Of a stretch of DNA of 64,000 nucleotides, positions 22,058 through 48,251 are shown piece by piece (the stretch's first letter is position 1; every line of letters begins with the position of its first letter). Source of the DNA: an uncultured bacterium (lineage in GTDB: Bacteria; Myxococcota_A; UBA796; CAJQPC01). The notes under the pieces are model-generated. The model did not search any database, was not told the DNA's origin, and was given only the letters and a program-made list of their open reading frames with translations. Both the position numbers and the translations under genes were made by a program. Location of the stretch: assembly GCA_905480105.1 (NCBI GenBank), contig CAJQPC010000113.1, positions 26,705 to 90,704 of the forward strand. Reading direction: 5' to 3'.

Positions 22058-22768
22058 TCAAACAGGCCGTGGGGTGATCTTTTCAGGGTCCAGCAAGCGC
22101 TCAAAGCTGCCTAAGGTGGACAGCATTCGAGATTGGAGGCCGCCTCCAGGGCCACGCTGCAGCATCCAGTACATCGGGCGTTCGCCGACCTGAATCCGAA
22201 CGCAGAAACGTCCAGCCTGTTGCAGTCCATAGCTACGGTCCACACTCAGGGACTCGCCCTGCTCGATGTGGTGTGCAAGCTGTCGTAGCAGTCGCAGGGA
22301 CTCCAGTGTGTCGGAGGCGGCGTCTGCCAGCACCGACACATTGCGTTCGTTGAGAGCCTGCACCAGAAGCCAGACGAAGGTCCATGCCTCTTTGGACTCG
22401 GGCAGCGCCTCAAAGCTTGGCGGCGCCGAGATGGCGCCTTCCACGAAGAGGTGGGCCACTTGGGCATTCTTGGTCAGACCCGCCAACCCGGAGCCCGTAT
22501 CGAGCAGGTGCAGACCGGCCAGGATGTGCTCCTCGCCTGCCTGGTCCACGCGCAGCAGGGGTACGGCAATGGCGGTACGTCCGTCTTGCTCAGCGAGCAC
22601 GACCCCGGCGCCTAAGAACAGGCCCTTGCGGACGGCCTGCTTGTAGAGCGAGCCCGGTGTGTCCTGGTCTGCGGACCAGCCCCGTGGCGTGCACTGAGCT
22701 TGGGCAGCGGCCTCGTCTTTGCCCGAGATGGCCTGAGCGAAAGCATCCGCTCTTCTCTCCGCGCTCAT
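22058..22768 (-). CDS. hypothetical cytoplasmic protein, coupled partner of the DUF4157 giant protein
   Basis: The start ATG overlaps the upstream stop as ATGA (22765-22768). No signal peptide or TM helix. No motif recognised. Confidence 0.5.
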   Translation of the reverse strand: MSAERRADAFAQAISGKDEAAAQAQCTPRGWSADQDTPGSLYKQAVRKGLFLGAGVVLAEQDGRTAIAVPLLRVDQAGEEHILAGLHLLDTGSGLAGLTKNAQVAHLFVEGAISAPPSFEALPESKEAWTFVWLLVQALNERNVSVLADAASDTLESLRLLRQLAHHIEQGESLSVDRSYGLQQAGRFCVRIQVGERPMYWMLQRGPGGGLQSRMLSTLGSFERLLDPEKITPRPV

Positions 22769-25700
22769 TCACCCACCATTCGCTTGAACTCGTCTTTGCG
22801 GTCACCGTCCAGCTCCCCGCGCACATCGTCCTTGTCTGCCACGGCCAAGACCGCGTTCAGGTCACCGGACGCATTGGAGAAGCGCAGGATTTCAATCATG
22901 GCGTCCTGGTCATCGCCGCCGGTCCAGCCGCTCATCAGCTTCTTGAGCATCTCACCGCGCTGGGTGGCGTCGGCCAGCTTGTGGGCGTCGTTGGCCACAG
23001 CCTCGCGCACCTTGTCGTCGCCGGAGAACAGGCCCCAAAAGCTCTCCCACAGGGAGGCACCAAAGCCGGCCATGTCGGAGACGGCGTCGGCGATCCAGTC
23101 GGTCGCGATGCTCGCCAGTTCTCCGCCAACGACCAAGGCAAGCTTGATGCCTTCCAGGGCGTCGATGTTCACCGAGACCTTGGCGCCCAAGCCCACACCC
23201 CAGGTGGCGTTGGCCCCCCAGGTAAAGCTGAGCTTACCCCCGGAGAAGCCGACCTTGGCGCTGATCTGTGCGCCCACGCCCAAGCTGCCCTCGCCGGTGC
23301 CTTCTACCCCTAGAACTGGGATTTCTCCCTCGGGGCCCCAGGTCAGCACCGAGGTGATCAAGCGCTCAACAACCTCGTCGGCTCCCACTTGACGCATCAC
23401 CCAACCGAGTCCTGGGACGGCGCTGGATGCGGTGTCGATGCCTGCCGCGATGGTGTTCTCCATCTTGGAGCTGTAGGCACCCTGGTCCTTTTTGTGCCAG
23501 TTCGCAGCTAAGCCTGCGCCCAGACGAACCTTAGCGCCGGCAAAAGCACCCGCGCTCGCGTCGAGAGTCGCGCCGACCCCACTGCTCTTTTCTGCCTCTG
23601 GGCCCGAGGCTACGGTCTCCGTGCTCCCGTCGGCGCCCGCCTTGGTCTGGGTGTCCATTTCGGAGAGGATTTCGTCGCCATCGATAGTACGGGAACCCTT
23701 CGAACGCTTGATGGAGGCGGTGATGCTGGCCTTGGCCTCGGCACCCACGAAGGCGTCGATGCTCACAAAGAAGGTGCCGGAGAACTCCTCTCCGAGCAGT
23801 GTGTACTGCTCGGTCTGCCACTCCCACTTCTGCTTCCATTCAAAGAGTTGGGCCCGAGCCTCGACCGCGGTCGCCAGCTCCACTCCAGTGGTGTCTACCG
23901 TCAAGCTTGACTTGCCGCCGGCCTCGAAGCCCAGCACGTCGTAGCTACCCGAGCTGGTGCTGCCACCCATGCCATCGGTGTTGCTCCAGGCATTCCCGGC
24001 TACGCTGGTGTCGGCCCAGATGTTGTTGGAGCTCTGCCCGTAGAGTCGCGTTTGTTTGGCTGTTCGGTCCCAAGCGTTGTTGCGCTTGGGTGCGCCGTAA
24101 ACGCCGGCAAGCTGCCGGTCGGTGCGCTCGCGCAGGTCCTCATCGGAGCTGCCTCTCGCGCCCCAGATCACCACCTTGCGTCCGTCAGCTCCGGTGGCCA
24201 CGGCATAGCGGCGACCGTCTTGAGCTGTTTTGAAGTTCTGAATGTGGTCTCGGCCCGAAGTTGGCGTGGCGCTTGTCCCGCTGGAAGCACCGCCCAGGTT
24301 GACCGCGCCTGTTTGAGCGTTGTCCGCTTGGCTGCCCGCACCCAAAGTGTTCTGGCTGTAGGTGTTGAACAGCGCCTGATTCCGGCCCCCGTCGGTGACC
24401 CCGCCCAGTCCGCTCTGGGACATGAGCTCATTGCGCGCGGCTATGAAGGTGACCAGGTTGACAGTGTCGGGCTCTACGGGAGCCCAGGTCCCGCCGGCGC
24501 GTCGGTAGCGCTGGGTGCCGTTGTCCGCAAAGACCATGGAGCGCAGCGCCTGTTTGCTTGCCCCGCTCAGATCGGGCGCAGTGGCGCTGGGGGTGTGGGC
24601 GCTGATTTGAGTCTGTTGAGGGGTACCGTCTTGGGCTGCGGCGTTGCGATTGGCAACGCGCTTGTCTGGGGTGGGGGTTGCCGAAGGGGTCATTTTATTC
24701 GGCGCGCGCATGTGCTTGGGGGTTCCGCCCACGCCCATTTGGCGCAGTCCAACCCCCGGTGCGCCCGGCTTTAGGCCTGAGCCTTGGCTGGTTCCCAAGG
24801 CATCGCCGAGCTGGCGAAGCATCTTGGTGGGTACGGTGTTCTTGAGGGTCTGCAGGGCACGACGGGGGTGGTGCTGGCGGCCCTGTGCCTTGGCTGGCGT
24901 GAGGGTTTCGCCGAAGGTGGCGTCGACCACCTCGAGCAGGCCACCGCTTACAGCGCCGTCTGCAAAAGCACGTGCCTTGCGCTCGTGGTCATCGCCCGGC
25001 TGGGAGACGCCTGGCTTTCCACCGCCCAAGACCGCGTGGTGCAGTTCCTCGGCGATGAGCGTCTTGGCGGCGTTGCCGGACTCGCTGAAGGTGCCGGGGG
25101 CGAAGTAGATGTCGCGGCCTACCGTGACGGCGTTCGCTGCGACCCCCACGGCAAAGTCTGCGGCGGCGCTGTCGGTGTGAATGCGCACTGAGTCGATGCT
25201 GCGACCCAAGATCGGGCGGAAGGCTTCCTTGAGGGAGTTGGGCAGAGACTGTCCGCCGCCGCTCGGACGCTCGCTGGTGGCTTCTCGGCCCATGGCGCCA
25301 GAGGCGTTTCGGTGCAGGGTCTCCCGTGTGGGCCGGGTCATGCGCTTCTCTTTGGTGGAGGCGCGCCCGGGCTCCTTGTTGCGCCCCTTAAAGAAGTGGC
25401 GGTCGATGTAGCCCCACGCGCCCTTTTGGTCGCCGTCCAGGACCTTGACCTTGGTCCAGCGCCGCATGGGCTTTTCTACGCCCAAGTTGGTTCCAGCTGC
25501 TAGCTGACCTGTCCAGTGTTTCTGCAGCTTTTTTGGGGCGTTCTGGAGGGCGGCTCCGTGGGCCTTGACCGCGGCGGTCTCCAGGCCATGCAGGGCAGCG
25601 TCTTCCTGCTCGTTGTCTGCCACGTTGGTCGCGGCTTGGTCTTCGGTTGGGCCGGTCTCTGTTTCGCTATCCGGAGTCTTCTCGGCGCCGGCATCTCCAC

Positions 25701-27345
25701 TCAGCTTCGCGCTCAGTGCATCGGAGCGCTCGCTGAGCGTGGAAAGGGTCTTTTGAAGTTGGCCGGCATCCAGTTTCTTGCTGTCTTTTAGCGCGGGCCC
25801 TTCCTTCTGGTCCTTCACCTGTTTTAGGTCGTTCACACCGGCGGTCAGTTCCTCTATTCCCTCTAAGAAGAGGGTCATCGCGTCTTGGAGCTTGCGGGCT
25901 CCTTCCAGGACTCTGCCCAGGGCTTGTGCCCCAAAATCCACATCGGCGTCTCCGCCGATGGTCTCCTGGACCCAGCCCACAATCGCGGTGAAGCGGGGCT
26001 CGCTGGGGTCGCTGTTGTCCTTGTTTTCCTTGGTGCGCTCGTCTTTGACCTCGCCGGTGCTTGGGCCGGAGTCGCCCAGCGCCCATCCGACCAGGGAGAG
26101 CAAGCTGCCCACGGCCTGGAGCTTGGCGCCGAGCTTTAGTCCCGCCTCGCTGGACTCCAGGGCGGCAGCGATGGCCTGCAGGGCCACCTTGGTCAGACCT
26201 AGGACGGTGGCCAGTGCTTCTCGCCAGAGGGTCTTGCGCTCCGCCTCTCCCAAGGTATCCCACAAGGAAATGCGCTCGCCCAGGGCCTCCATCCTCTCGT
26301 TCTGGGCCTTGATGATGGACTTCCATTCGCCCAGTTCTTCCAGGGACTCCTGGTCGTTCTGACGACCGTCCACTTGGTCCTGGTTCTGCTCGCCCCCTTG
26401 AGATTGTTTGTCCAAGGCGCTGTTGTCGTCGTCACGGGAGCGCATCGCCGCGCTCTGTCCCGTCTCGCTGCTCTGCGTGCCCCCCTCGGCGCTCTGCACG
26501 CCCAACTCCATGCCTTGGCCCATGGAGAGCTCGGCGTCCATCGGTGCCAGGATGCTGCCATCCAATTCGGGAAGCAGGCTGGTGGCCATGTTCTCCGCTT
26601 CCAGCTCCACGGCGTCCGTCGGGCTGGAGACGGCCATGCCCCCTTCGGTCTGGTTGGCGCCCGAGTTGGCCCTTAGGCGGCCCTCCATGTGCTGGACCAC
26701 ATGGGTGAGCTCATGGATCAGCAGGCGCAGGTTTCCCCGATCTTGCAGGTTGTCGTAGCCGTGGCCCAAGTACACGCTTTGGCCGACGGTGTAGGCCTTG
26801 GCGTTGATCGCCTTGGACGCCTGGTTTGCGGCGCCGTCGTTGTGAAGGCGGACCCCGCTAAAGTCCACGCCACCAAAAGCAGCCTCCAAACGGCTGCGTG
26901 CGAACTCGGGCAGGGGCTTTCCGCCGCGCGCTGCGGCGGCTTTGACCCTGGAGTCGGCATCTCGTGCAAAGACTTCGGGTGCGGGCAGGGCGTCCCGTGC
27001 GGCCAAATAGGCGGCCACGCTACTGTTGGACAGCATGCCGCTGTTGGCAGTGTCGGGGCCCAGTCCTGCGGCCCCCATCGTGAGGGCCTCGCTGATCAGC
27101 GGGGCAGGGCCGTCCAAGGAGCCGGCAAGGGCGCTCTGGATCAAGTTGTTGCCGAAGCTCTCCTGCAAGGAAGAACTCAGCGCGGCGTGGGACTCGGTCG
27201 CGGGCTCGGGGCGGGTAGCAATGTTGGAGGAAACACGCTCCTCATCCCGATCTCCACGGATATTTCCTGTGGGCTTTTTCACTACCGCCGCAGGCCGCAC
27301 TTTGTCTTCGCGTGCGCTGTTGGCAGCGGAGTCCGTCCGAGCCAT
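22765..27345 (-). CDS. 1526-aa protein with two DUF4157 (eCIS-core/HExxH-like) modules and an unassigned C-terminal region
   Basis: AAGGGAG lies 6 nt upstream of ATG 27345. Module 1 (aa 142-219): GKPLPEFARSRLEAAFGGVDFSGVRLHNDGAANQASKAINAKAYTVGQSVYLG...LLIHELTHVVQH. Module 2 (aa 697-773): GQSLPNSLKEAFRPILGRSIDSVRIHTDSAAADFAVGVAANAVTVGRDIYFAPG...LIAEELHHAVLG. No signal peptide. Confidence 0.75.
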   Translation of the reverse strand: MARTDSAANSAREDKVRPAAVVKKPTGNIRGDRDEERVSSNIATRPEPATESHAALSSSLQESFGNNLIQSALAGSLDGPAPLISEALTMGAAGLGPDTANSGMLSNSSVAAYLAARDALPAPEVFARDADSRVKAAAARGGKPLPEFARSRLEAAFGGVDFSGVRLHNDGAANQASKAINAKAYTVGQSVYLGHGYDNLQDRGNLRLLIHELTHVVQHMEGRLRANSGANQTEGGMAVSSPTDAVELEAENMATSLLPELDGSILAPMDAELSMGQGMELGVQSAEGGTQSSETGQSAAMRSRDDDNSALDKQSQGGEQNQDQVDGRQNDQESLEELGEWKSIIKAQNERMEALGERISLWDTLGEAERKTLWREALATVLGLTKVALQAIAAALESSEAGLKLGAKLQAVGSLLSLVGWALGDSGPSTGEVKDERTKENKDNSDPSEPRFTAIVGWVQETIGGDADVDFGAQALGRVLEGARKLQDAMTLFLEGIEELTAGVNDLKQVKDQKEGPALKDSKKLDAGQLQKTLSTLSERSDALSAKLSGDAGAEKTPDSETETGPTEDQAATNVADNEQEDAALHGLETAAVKAHGAALQNAPKKLQKHWTGQLAAGTNLGVEKPMRRWTKVKVLDGDQKGAWGYIDRHFFKGRNKEPGRASTKEKRMTRPTRETLHRNASGAMGREATSERPSGGGQSLPNSLKEAFRPILGRSIDSVRIHTDSAAADFAVGVAANAVTVGRDIYFAPGTFSESGNAAKTLIAEELHHAVLGGGKPGVSQPGDDHERKARAFADGAVSGGLLEVVDATFGETLTPAKAQGRQHHPRRALQTLKNTVPTKMLRQLGDALGTSQGSGLKPGAPGVGLRQMGVGGTPKHMRAPNKMTPSATPTPDKRVANRNAAAQDGTPQQTQISAHTPSATAPDLSGASKQALRSMVFADNGTQRYRRAGGTWAPVEPDTVNLVTFIAARNELMSQSGLGGVTDGGRNQALFNTYSQNTLGAGSQADNAQTGAVNLGGASSGTSATPTSGRDHIQNFKTAQDGRRYAVATGADGRKVVIWGARGSSDEDLRERTDRQLAGVYGAPKRNNAWDRTAKQTRLYGQSSNNIWADTSVAGNAWSNTDGMGGSTSSGSYDVLGFEAGGKSSLTVDTTGVELATAVEARAQLFEWKQKWEWQTEQYTLLGEEFSGTFFVSIDAFVGAEAKASITASIKRSKGSRTIDGDEILSEMDTQTKAGADGSTETVASGPEAEKSSGVGATLDASAGAFAGAKVRLGAGLAANWHKKDQGAYSSKMENTIAAGIDTASSAVPGLGWVMRQVGADEVVERLITSVLTWGPEGEIPVLGVEGTGEGSLGVGAQISAKVGFSGGKLSFTWGANATWGVGLGAKVSVNIDALEGIKLALVVGGELASIATDWIADAVSDMAGFGASLWESFWGLFSGDDKVREAVANDAHKLADATQRGEMLKKLMSGWTGGDDQDAMIEILRFSNASGDLNAVLAVADKDDVRGELDGDRKDEFKRMVGE

Positions 27346-43401: not shown

Positions 43402-43426
43402 GCGCCACCCCTCACAGGGTGGGCGC
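43402..43426 (-). terminator. GC-rich hairpin straddling the stop codon of the 43412-44614 gene
   Basis: GCGCCACCC / GGGTGGGCGC form 9 bp with one bulge and a 6-nt loop, in the 55-nt convergent spacer. No U-tract. Confidence 0.3.
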
Positions 43427-44614
43427 GGCCTGCACTGAGATCAACTCTCCCAGTCCTTTGGCGCGTTCCAAGGCATCCACGAATGTTGCGGCGGCGATCA
43501 CGCTGATCTGGACGCCCTGGTTGTTCTGGTACTCCGCGGTCCACAGCCGCATCTCAGCGTTTTTGTAGGCCGTACAGGCCACCGGAGAGAGACGCTCTTG
43601 GGCCGTGTTGACCAGCGTAGATGCTGGTTGCTTCACCTTTTCGGCAAAGGCTCGTGTGCGCGGATTCGTTTTCCGAGTGGCGGGACTCTCGGCTGACCGG
43701 GTCGCAGCCGGTGCCACAACTTGGATTTGCGGCGCAAAGCGCGGAGGAGAAGGGGGTTGACTCAGCCTCTTTTGCCTTGATTTCGCGACGGGGGACGCAG
43801 GTTCTTCTAAGTGCACCGCGGCACGAGACAGAGCCTTGGTGACGCGCGCTGCGGCCAGCGCGCTGTGTTTGGCCCCGTCAGGCTCATCGTCGCCACCGGA
43901 GGCGGCACGGCCGGTGGTGCTTGAGGCGGTCCTGGGCGCGCGGCGCCTGCGGACTCGGCCGTCGCCTTCGACTTGGGGAGGCGGCCTCGAGGTCAAGCTC
44001 GCGGACGGGCTCGCCGGTTTCAGGCCCCGCATCTCTTCACTACGCTCTGCGCTGACCACTCGCCGGCGACGGCTGGTTTCTGGCTCGTCGGAGGCTCTCA
44101 TGACGGGAGCGTCCTCGCTGCGAATCCTACCCAGGGTGTTGGCCAGCTTTAGGGCCCCTTCGTCCACGCGGCTGCTGGTGCGCTCGGGTTCCACTCGGCT
44201 TCGGGTGCGTTTGACCACCACGGTGGGCACGACGGACTCCGAGCGGCTGTAGTGCTCACGGGGCGGGCGTTCAGGCCGAGGGGGCTTGGCTTTTTTCGGC
44301 TTACGCACCTTGGGCTTGGGCAGGGTCTTGGGATTGAACGCTGCGATTTGGCGGCGCAAGCGTGCGCCTTTGACGAGCTCTGGAGTCACTCCAAGATCGG
44401 CTGCCAAACTATCGTCTGGGCAAGAACCCAGTCGATCTGCTGCGTTGAGCAGCTCGGGTGGCTCATTGGTCAAGCCGCAGCGCTGTGCAGCACGGCGTAG
44501 GCGCCTTGGATTGGTGCCAAAGCGCTTGGCCAAAGCCCGTAGGGATTCGTTGCCGTAGAGATGAGTGAACTCTTCCCACCAAGGCTCTTGCTGAGCCGCG
44601 TTGGTTTGATCCAT
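43412..44614 (-). CDS. hypothetical protein: short HTH-like N-terminus, long basic disordered middle, small C-terminal domain
   Basis: ESLRALAKRFGTNPRRLRRAAQRCGL and DSLAADLGVTPELVKGARLRR, then about 230 aa that are R/K/P/S/A-rich. Folded-looking end CTAYKNAEMRLWTAEYQNNQGVQISVIAAATFVDALERAKGLG. Confidence 0.45.
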   Translation of the reverse strand: MDQTNAAQQEPWWEEFTHLYGNESLRALAKRFGTNPRRLRRAAQRCGLTNEPPELLNAADRLGSCPDDSLAADLGVTPELVKGARLRRQIAAFNPKTLPKPKVRKPKKAKPPRPERPPREHYSRSESVVPTVVVKRTRSRVEPERTSSRVDEGALKLANTLGRIRSEDAPVMRASDEPETSRRRRVVSAERSEEMRGLKPASPSASLTSRPPPQVEGDGRVRRRRAPRTASSTTGRAASGGDDEPDGAKHSALAAARVTKALSRAAVHLEEPASPVAKSRQKRLSQPPSPPRFAPQIQVVAPAATRSAESPATRKTNPRTRAFAEKVKQPASTLVNTAQERLSPVACTAYKNAEMRLWTAEYQNNQGVQISVIAAATFVDALERAKGLGELISVQAAPTL

Positions 44615-46523: not shown

Positions 46524-48251
46524 TCAGTCGGCTTTGCAGGCGCTCATGCTGCCTGCCGCTGACACGCAGAGGCTTAGGGCGCGGTCGCTGGGAGCTCCAG
46601 CTGCCTTGGTGTAGTCCAGCCACTCCCGGGCGTAGTCCAGGGTCACGCCTCGCCACTGGGTGGTCAGGGCGTCGGCTTTGGCGCTGGGATCGGCCACCAG
46701 GTTCTGCTCGGCGTCTTGCCAGAGCTCCGCCGCGGCCTCGGTGCGCAGGCGGTACAGACTGTTGACTCGGGCTTTGTAGAGTTCTCCCTTCCAGTTCTGC
46801 TTGTTCTCCAGGGCGCGGTTGGCCCACACGATGGCTTGCTCGCCTTCTTCCACGCCCGCCTTGTAGAGGTGTAGTGCAAACAGGAAGCAGAGGTCCGGGT
46901 CGGACTGGGTGATATCCAGCAGGTGGCGCTCGACTAGAAGGGCCCATTGGGCCTTGTCTCCACTGGCCTCGGCGTTGGCTATCAGAAGGCGAGATAGCTT
47001 GTCCTGCTCGGTCTGCGGTGCCTTGGTCATGCGCGTTTCAATGCAGGCGATGCGCCCAGGGGAGAAGCGGCCCATCAGGGCATCGGGCTCCATGCCTACG
47101 ATGTCTTTGCAGGTATTATCCGAGAGGAAAAAGCTGGTCGTAGGGGGGCCCTCGACTTTGGCCACCTGGGGTGTTTTAGCGTCCTGTTGGCGCAGCAGAT
47201 TCTCTTTGTCGGCCAGCAGCAGCTTGGCCTCTTCTACAACGCTTATGGGTGGGACCCACTCCACGCTGACCTGGTGCTGGGACCACTGGTCCACGAAGCG
47301 CTCCAGACTGTCAGTCTCCATCCGGCCGGCCTCTATCGCTGCCAACAAGGTCAACAGGGCATCTTCGGCTTGGTCCTGTGCGTAGCGCTCGGCCAGTTCC
47401 ATCCGACGGACCACATCCTCCTTGCCCCAGGCGACAAGCTCCTCGGTCCGGGGGCCGTCTGCGCGCACGCGCTTACCGGAGACCACCCAGTCCGGGAACT
47501 CGGTGCTCAAGTTGGCGCGCTGGGGCCTACCCAAAGAGCGGCTGGCCTGGCGCACCCAGAGCTGGGCTTCGTTCAGGTGCACCAGACCATCGCCGTCCAG
47601 ATCGCCCCAGCCTTGCAGCGCCCCCAGGGCGAGGTAGGTGAACAGTCCATGGCCGCTGGGCTCAAAGCCTCGGGCTCCGCCGCGCTCATCTCCCACCCAG
47701 AGCACGACCTTGTCGTTGGGGTCGTCGCCCCAGTCGATGACTTGGGGCGGGGTCGGTGCGAGCTCGCTGCGAGCGCTCTCATCAAAGCTAGCGTCGATGA
47801 GGATGAAGACCTTTTTTGCGCGGCTGCGGGCGGCTGCCTCCTGGAGGTCGAGCAAGGAGATGCCCGCCATGGGGTCATCGAGCGTGGTGTCGACTCCCAG
47901 CAGGCGGGGCACGCCGTCCACGACGCGGCCCTGGCCCGAGAAGGTGATCCAGAGGGTGCCGTCCTTTCTTACGCGCGCCATGGCCCGATCAATCGCGGCT
48001 TGCATTTCGCGGTTGCTGGGGTCCATCTCCACGCGGCTGCGGCTCTTGCTGGGGCCCCATGTCTCGAAAAGCCAGCTCGCTGCAGCGCTGGCGTCTGCCA
48101 GGGCGTAGGGCACATCGTTCAAGTGATGGTAGTCCTCGACTCCGAGCACCACGATCGCATCCCGCATACTGCGGACCCCCGTGTCAATGCTCTTATCTAC
48201 CGATGGCAGGTCTGCGGCCCAGGCGCTCGCGATCAAAACAGAGGTCATCAT
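46524..48251 (-). CDS. orthocaspase (peptidase C14)-like protein with substituted catalytic dyad, plus helical-repeat C-terminus
   Basis: AIVVLGVEDYHHLNDVPYALADA...LWITFSGQG...KKVFILIDAS...GHGLFTYLALGALQGWGDLDGDGLVHLNEAQLWV parallels bacterial caspase-domain proteins (xYFSGHG / LDaC / GxFTyaLl.gL.G.AD.dgDG.it..EL..Y). It has Q107 for His and S155 for Cys. Confidence 0.55.
   Translation of the reverse strand: MMTSVLIASAWAADLPSVDKSIDTGVRSMRDAIVVLGVEDYHHLNDVPYALADASAAASWLFETWGPSKSRSRVEMDPSNREMQAAIDRAMARVRKDGTLWITFSGQGRVVDGVPRLLGVDTTLDDPMAGISLLDLQEAAARSRAKKVFILIDASFDESARSELAPTPPQVIDWGDDPNDKVVLWVGDERGGARGFEPSGHGLFTYLALGALQGWGDLDGDGLVHLNEAQLWVRQASRSLGRPQRANLSTEFPDWVVSGKRVRADGPRTEELVAWGKEDVVRRMELAERYAQDQAEDALLTLLAAIEAGRMETDSLERFVDQWSQHQVSVEWVPPISVVEEAKLLLADKENLLRQQDAKTPQVAKVEGPPTTSFFLSDNTCKDIVGMEPDALMGRFSPGRIACIETRMTKAPQTEQDKLSRLLIANAEASGDKAQWALLVERHLLDITQSDPDLCFLFALHLYKAGVEEGEQAIVWANRALENKQNWKGELYKARVNSLYRLRTEAAAELWQDAEQNLVADPSAKADALTTQWRGVTLDYAREWLDYTKAAGAPSDRALSLCVSAAGSMSACKAD

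Follow-up and report, generated by a model that had tools for sequence, protein, structure and literature searches.

A predicted pseudo-orthocaspase family of uncultured Myxococcota with a substituted catalytic dyad and a cysteine-containing helical domain

Introduction

Pseudo-orthocaspases are prokaryotic homologues of the caspase p20 domain in which catalytic His-Cys dyad residues are substituted (Klemencic et al. 2019, PMC6426788). In the survey that defines them, 858 of 9,994 bacterial orthocaspases (8.6%) are without one or both dyad residues. Most of these proteins are found in Alphaproteobacteria and Cyanobacteria, and the types described are Tyr-Ser, Tyr-Ala, Phe-Ser, Tyr-Asn, Gln-Cys and His-Ala, of which the alphaproteobacterial Phe-Ser type has C-terminal tetratricopeptide repeats (TPRs) (PMC6426788). 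SyOC of Synechocystis, a cyanobacterial representative of the Tyr-Ser type, shows a knockout phenotype under oxidative stress (PMC7889975). Here we analyse a 64,000-nucleotide stretch of contig CAJQPC010000113.1 (the window) from an uncultured bacterium assigned to the Myxococcota, and within it a minus-strand gene for a 575-residue protein that fits this definition, being a p20 homologue in which the dyad residues are substituted. A first, sequence-only reading of the window had called a secreted pseudo-protease scaffold of this type unusual. The survey counts speak otherwise, as do the TPR-bearing members among those inactive homologues. We argue that the gene encodes a pseudo-orthocaspase, most likely a non-catalytic binding or scaffold protein, that probably operates outside the cytoplasm.

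A predicted caspase domain in the N-terminal half

The open reading frame (ORF) is preceded by an in-frame TAA at 48263-48261, 9 nucleotides before the ATG, which fixes that ATG as the start of the 575-residue frame. Direct reading finds the motifs WITFSGQG, FILIDAS and DLDGDG (residues 217-222, starting at 47603) and the N-terminus MMTSVLIASAWA, all as previously reported.

We modelled the protein with AlphaFold2 (AF2) from an alignment of its family, obtaining a mean predicted local distance difference test (pLDDT) score of 91.2. In the model, residues ~30-262 form a caspase/hemoglobinase fold, with the strand and helix order typical of caspases and six strands (32-37, 72-76, 99-111, 147-155, 182-186 and ~256) and five helices at pLDDT >90. 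Foldseek comparison with the PDB places the MALT1 paracaspase first (E 3e-8), with a template-modelling (TM) score of 0.68 to its isolated caspase domain 3v4o_A. Arabidopsis metacaspase 9 (AtMC9), yeast Yca1 and human caspase-9 follow at E <= 4e-5, and metacaspase 4 (AtMC4) is also matched; the top matches are exclusively caspase-fold proteases, at 10-15% sequence identity. The similarity to the caspase fold is therefore significant, and the layout that the sequence-only reading had assigned to the N-terminal region is borne out by the model, the structural matches and the profile matches that follow.

The PADLOC 'caspase' model matches the protein directly (E 9.5e-4); PADLOC reports this generic model alone, with no defence-system context. 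BLASTP links the protein to two intact His-Cys orthocaspases that are positive for PF00656 (Peptidase_C14), at E 3e-17 and 1e-13. A database search returned 48 homologues, mostly of ~580-650 residues, the distant ones carrying precomputed PF00656 matches. A peptidase C14 profile search, which had been suggested as a check, fails in Pfam for the protein itself but succeeds for its relatives: when aligned full-length family members were scanned singly, 27 of 44 matched PF00656, the best at E 1.8e-12. A phmmer search of the PDB sequences with the protein returns a chance match only (E 1.3), and the family profile reaches a marginal E of 0.04-0.25 against the same sequences, at which it still served to map the dyad columns. 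At the sequence level, membership of C14 thus holds through transitive homology.

Gln and Ser occupy the dyad columns

Three independent alignments concur on the catalytic columns. BLASTP against the closer orthocaspase pairs 'GTLWITFSGQG' with 'GTLWFVFVGHG' and 'ILIDASF' with 'VFLDACF'; the second orthocaspase gives the same columns, with His opposite Q107 and Cys opposite S155; and the family profile pairs 'yfaGHg' with 'YYAGHG' and 'vDas' with 'LLDMC' of MALT1. In the AF2 model strand 147-155 ends in S155, which is the canonical site of the caspase Cys. Both codons were read directly from the sequence (Table 1), and the columns that the sequence-only reading had chosen for the two substitutions prove to be the right ones.

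Cys is absent from the whole caspase domain, C381 being the first in the protein, and the family alignment has no invariant Cys, Ser or His column within the domain. With residues 1-380 devoid of Cys and no such invariant column, no alternative dyad is available, and hence no other His/Cys pair takes up the active site. Q107 and S155 thus hold the columns of the His-Cys dyad that marks an active C14 peptidase. The protein is predicted to be catalytically dead, its nucleophile Cys replaced by Ser and its general-base His by Gln, and on this prediction it can no longer cut peptide bonds.

The loss of the Cys is old and the domain is under selection

Both codons lie one nucleotide away from codons for His or Cys, and this might be taken to mean that sequencing or assembly errors, or the recent inactivation of an active protease, produced an artefact or a decaying pseudogene. 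We regard this explanation as having a negligible chance of being correct. Copies of the exact 575-residue protein are found on 12 contigs, contributed by four sources (NCBI, JGI/IMG, Logan and ENA), Q and S are retained in all near-identical variants (>=90%) that span both positions, the ORF is full length, and orthologues at 84-29% identity are equally without the Cys. The one-nucleotide distance is real but irrelevant, given that Q and S are fixed in all independent assemblies and that the Cys loss is ancient and family-wide. Error and pseudogene decay are refuted by the 12 contigs, the Cys-less orthologues and purifying selection.

The orthologue survey comprised 88 sequences, with identity down to 29%, drawn from database homologues and from genes on one-genome-per-species contigs. 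At the catalytic-Cys column none of the 88 has Cys, the position being filled instead by G, S, P, T, A, D or V. The His column retains H in the deeper branches, giving types His-Gly, His-Ser, His-Thr and His-Asp, and holds Q, A or N in the clade of the window protein. The loss of the Cys, as judged from these sequences, is family-wide and ancient. Two family members are odd: in L029 ('LDCAFG') a Cys stands immediately before the canonical Cys column, and in P0070 ('VVIGCGR') the His column is occupied by Cys and the Cys column by Asp. Each case may reflect chance or a relocated reactive residue.

The survey also bears on a suggestion of the sequence-only reading, that Ser155 might be the nucleophile of a Ser-type caspase variant; in a broader form of this idea, some other residue would serve and the protein would still be an active hydrolase. 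The window protein and its closest orthologues do have Ser in precisely the Cys column, and the S1 pocket is intact. Yet the column is variable among close orthologues too (A in P0005 and P0014, P in P0007, T in P0013), which excludes a conserved Ser nucleophile; the general base has gone as well, and the domain offers neither an invariant Ser, Cys or His nor any Cys before residue 381. We consider an active hydrolase of this kind very improbable, and reject the Ser-nucleophile reading on the variability of the column across the 88 orthologues.

Against the 84% orthologue, the ratio of nonsynonymous to synonymous substitution rates (dN/dS) of the window gene is 0.11 overall, 0.10 in the caspase domain, 0.21 in the linker and 0.05 in the C-terminal domain; the corresponding value against the 67% orthologue L006 is unreliable, with dS near saturation. 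The ratio of 0.10 in the caspase domain indicates that the dead domain is maintained by selection.

What is retained is the acidic S1 pocket. Two acidic residues form the pocket for basic P1 residues in metacaspases and are conserved in other pseudo-orthocaspases (PMC6426788). In the present family the column of the second, D153, is invariant and the first, D53, in an 'A..DA' motif after strand beta1, is kept in at least 90% of sequences. A further feature of the domain is the calcium-binding-like loop noted in the sequence-only reading, DLDGDGLVHLNE. The strict EF-hand pattern, as used here, is D-x-[DNS]-x-[DNS]-G-x-[ILV]-x-x-x-E with the full PROSITE-type set of allowed residues. The DLDGDG motif is present and suits a looser DxDxDG pattern, but DLDGDGLVHLNE departs from the strict one in two places, with H at loop position 9 and A directly after the loop. 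In the His-Cys relatives P0046 and P0047 the corresponding loop satisfies the strict pattern, which suggests that the EF-hand-like loop, a putative calcium site in the window protein, was inherited from active ancestors.

Table 1 Features of the predicted pseudo-orthocaspase gene, in window coordinates
Feature	Position	Strand	Basis or remark
Pseudo-orthocaspase gene, complete ORF, 575 aa + stop	46524..48251	-	Start fixed by upstream in-frame TAA; 100% identity on 12 public contigs
Short signal-peptide-like N-terminus, aa 1-12, MMTSVLIASAWA then ADLPS	48216..48251	-	Aligns with h- and c-regions and A-x-A site of deeper members
Caspase/hemoglobinase-fold (p20-like, Peptidase C14) domain, aa ~30-262	47466..48164	-	AF2, Foldseek, PF00656 in homologues, PADLOC caspase model
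D53 (GAC), first acidic S1-pocket residue (Asp95 of TbMC2; Asp of Yca1 'CIND')	48093..48095	-	Profile alignment to Yca1 and MALT1
Q107 (CAG), catalytic His position	47931..47933	-	Aligned to His of 'GHG' in P0046 and P0047 and to MALT1 'YYAGHG'
D153 (GAC), second acidic S1-pocket residue, two before catalytic Cys (Asp211 of TbMC2)	47793..47795	-	Aligned to D of 'LLDMC' and 'DACFSG'
S155 (AGC), catalytic Cys position, end of strand beta4	47787..47789	-	Aligned to Cys of 'DACFSG' and of MALT1 'LLDMC'
EF-hand-like DxDxDG loop, aa 217-228, between helices alpha4 and alpha5	47568..47603	-	Loose pattern DxDxDGxhxxxE
Helical linker, aa 268-357, including a ~40-residue helix; then disordered aa 359-376	47181..47450	-	AF2 model
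All-helical TPR-like C-terminal domain, ~200 aa (377-575)	46527..47123	-	Five invariant Cys; pLDDT >95; no Pfam or NCBIfam model

The C-terminal half and the fate of the N-terminus

The helical region that the sequence-only reading had placed after the caspase domain is confirmed by the AF2 model, in which the C-terminal half is all-helical; nothing resembling the metacaspase-type p10 domain, whose absence separates orthocaspases from metacaspases, follows residue 262 in that model, no p10 profile having been applied. The linker is common to the His-Cys relatives that are without the C-terminal domain, their matches extending over profile positions ~5-370. The C-terminal domain itself has five invariant Cys (C381, C403, C455, C562 and C572) and the conserved motifs DRSDPDLCF, WADYALENK and REWLDY. 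No Pfam or NCBIfam model matches it, and TPR models of Pfam do not either; the top, weak Foldseek matches of the C-terminal half are the TPR-type proteins NatA, LGN, BamD and MamA at TM <= 0.37, the best at E 0.02 and none at E <= 0.001.

At 46-51% identity, the same domain ends a larger, separate family of stand-alone proteins of ~400-500 residues in similar genomes. In metagenome-assembled genomes (MAGs) of Myxococcota, these proteins consist of a signal peptide, a 'C.DGWA.C' motif, a low-complexity linker and the C-terminal domain. Two stand-alone genes, in L056 (5362-6612 (+)) and L066 (5152-6603 (+)), have conserved neighbours: a TPR lipoprotein gene upstream and, downstream, genes for a ~450-residue protein of no assigned family and an SBP_bac_5 solute-binding protein.

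The signal-like N-terminus of the earlier account stands in part. MMTSVLIASAWA is there, with an h-region and AWA followed by A, at pLDDT <50; it is only 12 residues long and the basic n-region is absent. Deeper family members have canonical signal peptides that end in A-x-A (for example MRPRLPLLLPVLVALGAPAHA followed by AK) and align with MMTSVLIASAWA followed by AD, and across the window protein's clade the segment is shortened to 12-17 residues with no basic residue. Homology to these real signal peptides, together with the invariant Cys and the secreted paralogues, makes export of the 575-residue protein likely.

Loss of the nucleophile coincides with a domain fusion

A profile search over 1.84 billion representative sequences retrieved 1,094 proteins at E <= 1e-30, and the full-length members form ~30 clusters at 50% identity. 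The best 150 of the 1,094 matches fall into three groups: full-length proteins, proteins with the C-terminal ~200 residues only, and proteins with the N-terminal domain and helical linker only. Among 106 proteins that have the N-terminal domain, the His-Cys dyad is found in none of the 68 that also have the C-terminal domain and in 28 of the 38 that do not, the 28 having intact 'GHG' and 'D[AT]C[YF]' motifs. Cys loss is thus perfectly associated with fusion to the five-Cys helical domain.

In a neighbour-joining tree, which is rough and without support values, the His-Cys proteins form one cluster. The family with the C-terminal domain neighbours it and is entirely Cys-less, and the Q-type clade of the window protein is derived within that family. 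The simplest history that would account for these sequences is a single loss of the Cys, around the acquisition of the C-terminal domain, at the base of a large family of uncultured Myxococcota. The His would have been lost later in the window protein's lineage and, independently, a few times in other branches.

The His-Cys relatives are themselves varied in their C-termini. Five of them (P0121, P0127, P0136, P0137 and P0175) have 600-1000 residues of C-terminal repeats of the form 'NDE.WGD.GDA....G......C.A...A...DP.D.EW..K', and others have FGE-sulfatase-like regions, assigned from sequence only, or membrane-anchor C-termini. This variety suggests a large, diversified repertoire of secreted orthocaspases in these Myxococcota.

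A probable binding or scaffold role

We consider it probable that the gene encodes a pseudo-orthocaspase acting as a non-catalytic binding or scaffold protein outside the cytoplasm, and we infer that a ligand is bound through the S1 pocket. On this reading the dead active-site cleft would dock a basic residue (Arg or Lys) on a ligand, either protein or peptide, a second partner would be bound by the helical C-terminal domain, and the protein would act either in the cell envelope or extracellularly. The fold, the two S1-pocket Asp and the EF-hand-like loop are retained under purifying selection.

Several points weigh against this reading, which is drawn wholly from sequence and predicted structure. 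The protein alone has no match in NCBIfam or, even at E <= 10, in Pfam; with no match in these collections or among the PDB sequences, the caspase assignment had to be reached by other routes. The dyad assignment comes from sequence and profile alignments and from the secondary-structure position of S155, not from residue-level superposition. The signal-like segment is so short and lacking in basic residues that export is uncertain, and the TPR likeness of the C-terminal domain is weak and general, the best Foldseek E being 0.02. In the neighbourhoods of 44 loci no partner gene is conserved family-wide, and the top 'clusters' there are apparently shadow ORFs of the gene itself.

The principal competing explanation is a regulatory one. 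cFLIP is a pseudo-caspase that regulates caspase-8, and caspase-fold proteases such as MALT1, whose type supplies the best structural matches here, function as dimers. By analogy, the dead domain could pair through the caspase dimer interface with His-Cys paralogues of the same bacterium, so as to activate, inhibit or localise them; its anchor would be the C-terminal domain. Such control of active paralogues by pseudo-caspases is an established principle, and the 28 His-Cys relatives show that related N-terminal domains with an intact dyad are abundant in similar genomes. These data are compatible with the idea. No His-Cys paralogue, however, is found in the 64-kb window or beside family members, and a pure dimerisation role would not need conserved S1-pocket Asp residues; we judge it unlikely, while still the foremost rival to the binding or scaffold role.

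More speculatively, the coupling of Cys loss to the five-Cys-domain fusion may mark an extracytoplasmic system specific to Myxococcota. The dead domains would be receptors or regulators of the active His-Cys paralogues, and the stand-alone C-domain proteins would be further components. We hold this to be a long shot. If true, it would amount to a secreted bacterial analogue of the control of caspase-8 by cFLIP, possibly linked to predation or developmental lysis.

Genomic context and host

The gene is flanked by a convergent gene for an MscS-type channel and by divergent DUF309 and periplasmic-binding-protein (Peripla_BP_2) genes. This synteny is common to the 84% orthologue only and is not seen at the 48% orthologue. 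The window contains no second copy of the caspase domain or the C-terminal domain, and scans for promoters and terminators around the gene gave nothing above shuffled expectation; the gene appears to stand alone. In the His-retaining branch, a gene for a ~390-430-residue protein resembling a flavin adenine dinucleotide (FAD) oxidoreductase, assigned from its IIGGGPAA motif only, lies directly downstream on the same strand at ~20 loci (L013-L042; for example L042 7671-8855). It is confined to that branch and absent from the window protein's clade.

Elsewhere in the window, a 1,526-residue ORF at 22765-27345 (-) contains two eCIS_core domains (PF13699, formerly DUF4157; E 1.4e-40), which are typical of giant toxin- or effector-like proteins. 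A 400-residue ORF at 43412-44614 (-), beyond the convergent MscS gene and downstream of the pseudo-orthocaspase gene, has no Pfam match and encodes a very basic protein rich in Pro, Arg, Ser and Ala.

The G+C content of the window is 59-65%. All related loci come from MAGs with titles that name Myxococcota or Deltaproteobacteria or are generic or apparently wrong. Among the last, GTDB-representative MAGs including L031, L049, L047 and L016 are titled 'Klebsiella pneumoniae', 'uncultured Klebsiella sp.' or 'uncultured Enterobacterales' and look mis-assigned. The 48% orthologue, P0009, lies on contigs of 150-235 kb in L003 and L004 (GCA_024712105.1 and GCA_002896315.2), assemblies of >100,000 contigs, which suggests bacterial contigs inside large assemblies that may be host-associated or labelled as eukaryotic. 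An HDOD-domain gene is found within 5 kb of the family gene in L003/L004 and in L001.

Comparison with known systems

A full-text search of the literature on orthocaspases turned up nothing relevant for Myxococcus or Myxococcota. A few deltaproteobacterial pseudo-p20 sequences appear in the supplement of PMC6426788; they could not be tied to the present family.

Among the closest known proteins are the intact His-Cys orthocaspases of Myxococcota and their relatives (for example P0046, P0047, P0096 and P0121; PF00656), which have the same N-terminal domain, helical linker and signal peptides. They share with the family the motifs DAAVVIG.EDY, GTLW.YF.G, D.[AT].[FY].G..R and GHGLFTY..GALRGWADG..DG.VT..EAQ. 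They differ in keeping 'GHG' and 'D[AT]C[YF]' and in their C-termini, which are membrane anchors, FGE-sulfatase-like regions or long WGDxGD repeats. The evolutionary picture that this comparison suggests is a clean one: the nucleophile would have been lost once, with the gain of a new C-terminal domain, and the base later, while active sisters persist and the pocket and fold remain under selection.

MALT1, Yca1, AtMC9, AtMC4 and caspase-9 share the predicted fold, and MALT1 and the metacaspases also share the basic-P1 pocket Asp residues, two before the Cys and after strand beta1. The window protein departs from these proteases in its 10-15% identity, in having no dyad, and in being without immunoglobulin or death domains or a recognisable metacaspase p10 calcium site. 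cFLIP and other eukaryotic pseudo-caspases offer a parallel, in that they have the same Cys-less caspase fold, retained by selection for a non-catalytic role. cFLIP differs in its DED domains and its heterodimerisation with caspase-8, and has no evolutionary link to the window protein beyond the fold.

With the known pseudo-orthocaspases, the family has in common a p20-like domain in which one or both dyad residues are replaced and the fold and two S1 Asp are kept. A non-catalytic C-terminal extension is likewise common to both, helical or TPR-containing in some of the known proteins, and some of those also have signal-peptide-like N-termini. There are four differences. The dyad columns read Gln-Ser (His-Gly or His-Ser in deeper branches) instead of Tyr-Ser, Tyr-Ala, Phe-Ser, Tyr-Asn or Gln-Cys. 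The hosts are uncultured Myxococcota of non-photosynthetic type, and not the Alphaproteobacteria or Cyanobacteria of the known proteins. The C-terminal domain is a five-Cys helical module without a Pfam TPR match that also occurs in a separate secreted family, unlike the extensions of known pseudo-orthocaspases. Finally, the clean link between a domain fusion and loss of the Cys sets this family apart.

The analysis draws attention to a helical domain with conserved Cys, uncharacterised and widespread among aquatic Myxococcota, and to a convenient natural system for asking why a dead caspase cleft is kept. The window protein is a new example within a documented class of inactive bacterial caspase homologues, not a surprise. 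It overturns nothing known. The class, which has been described mainly in Alphaproteobacteria and Cyanobacteria, gains with it a large and well-conserved family of pseudo-orthocaspases.

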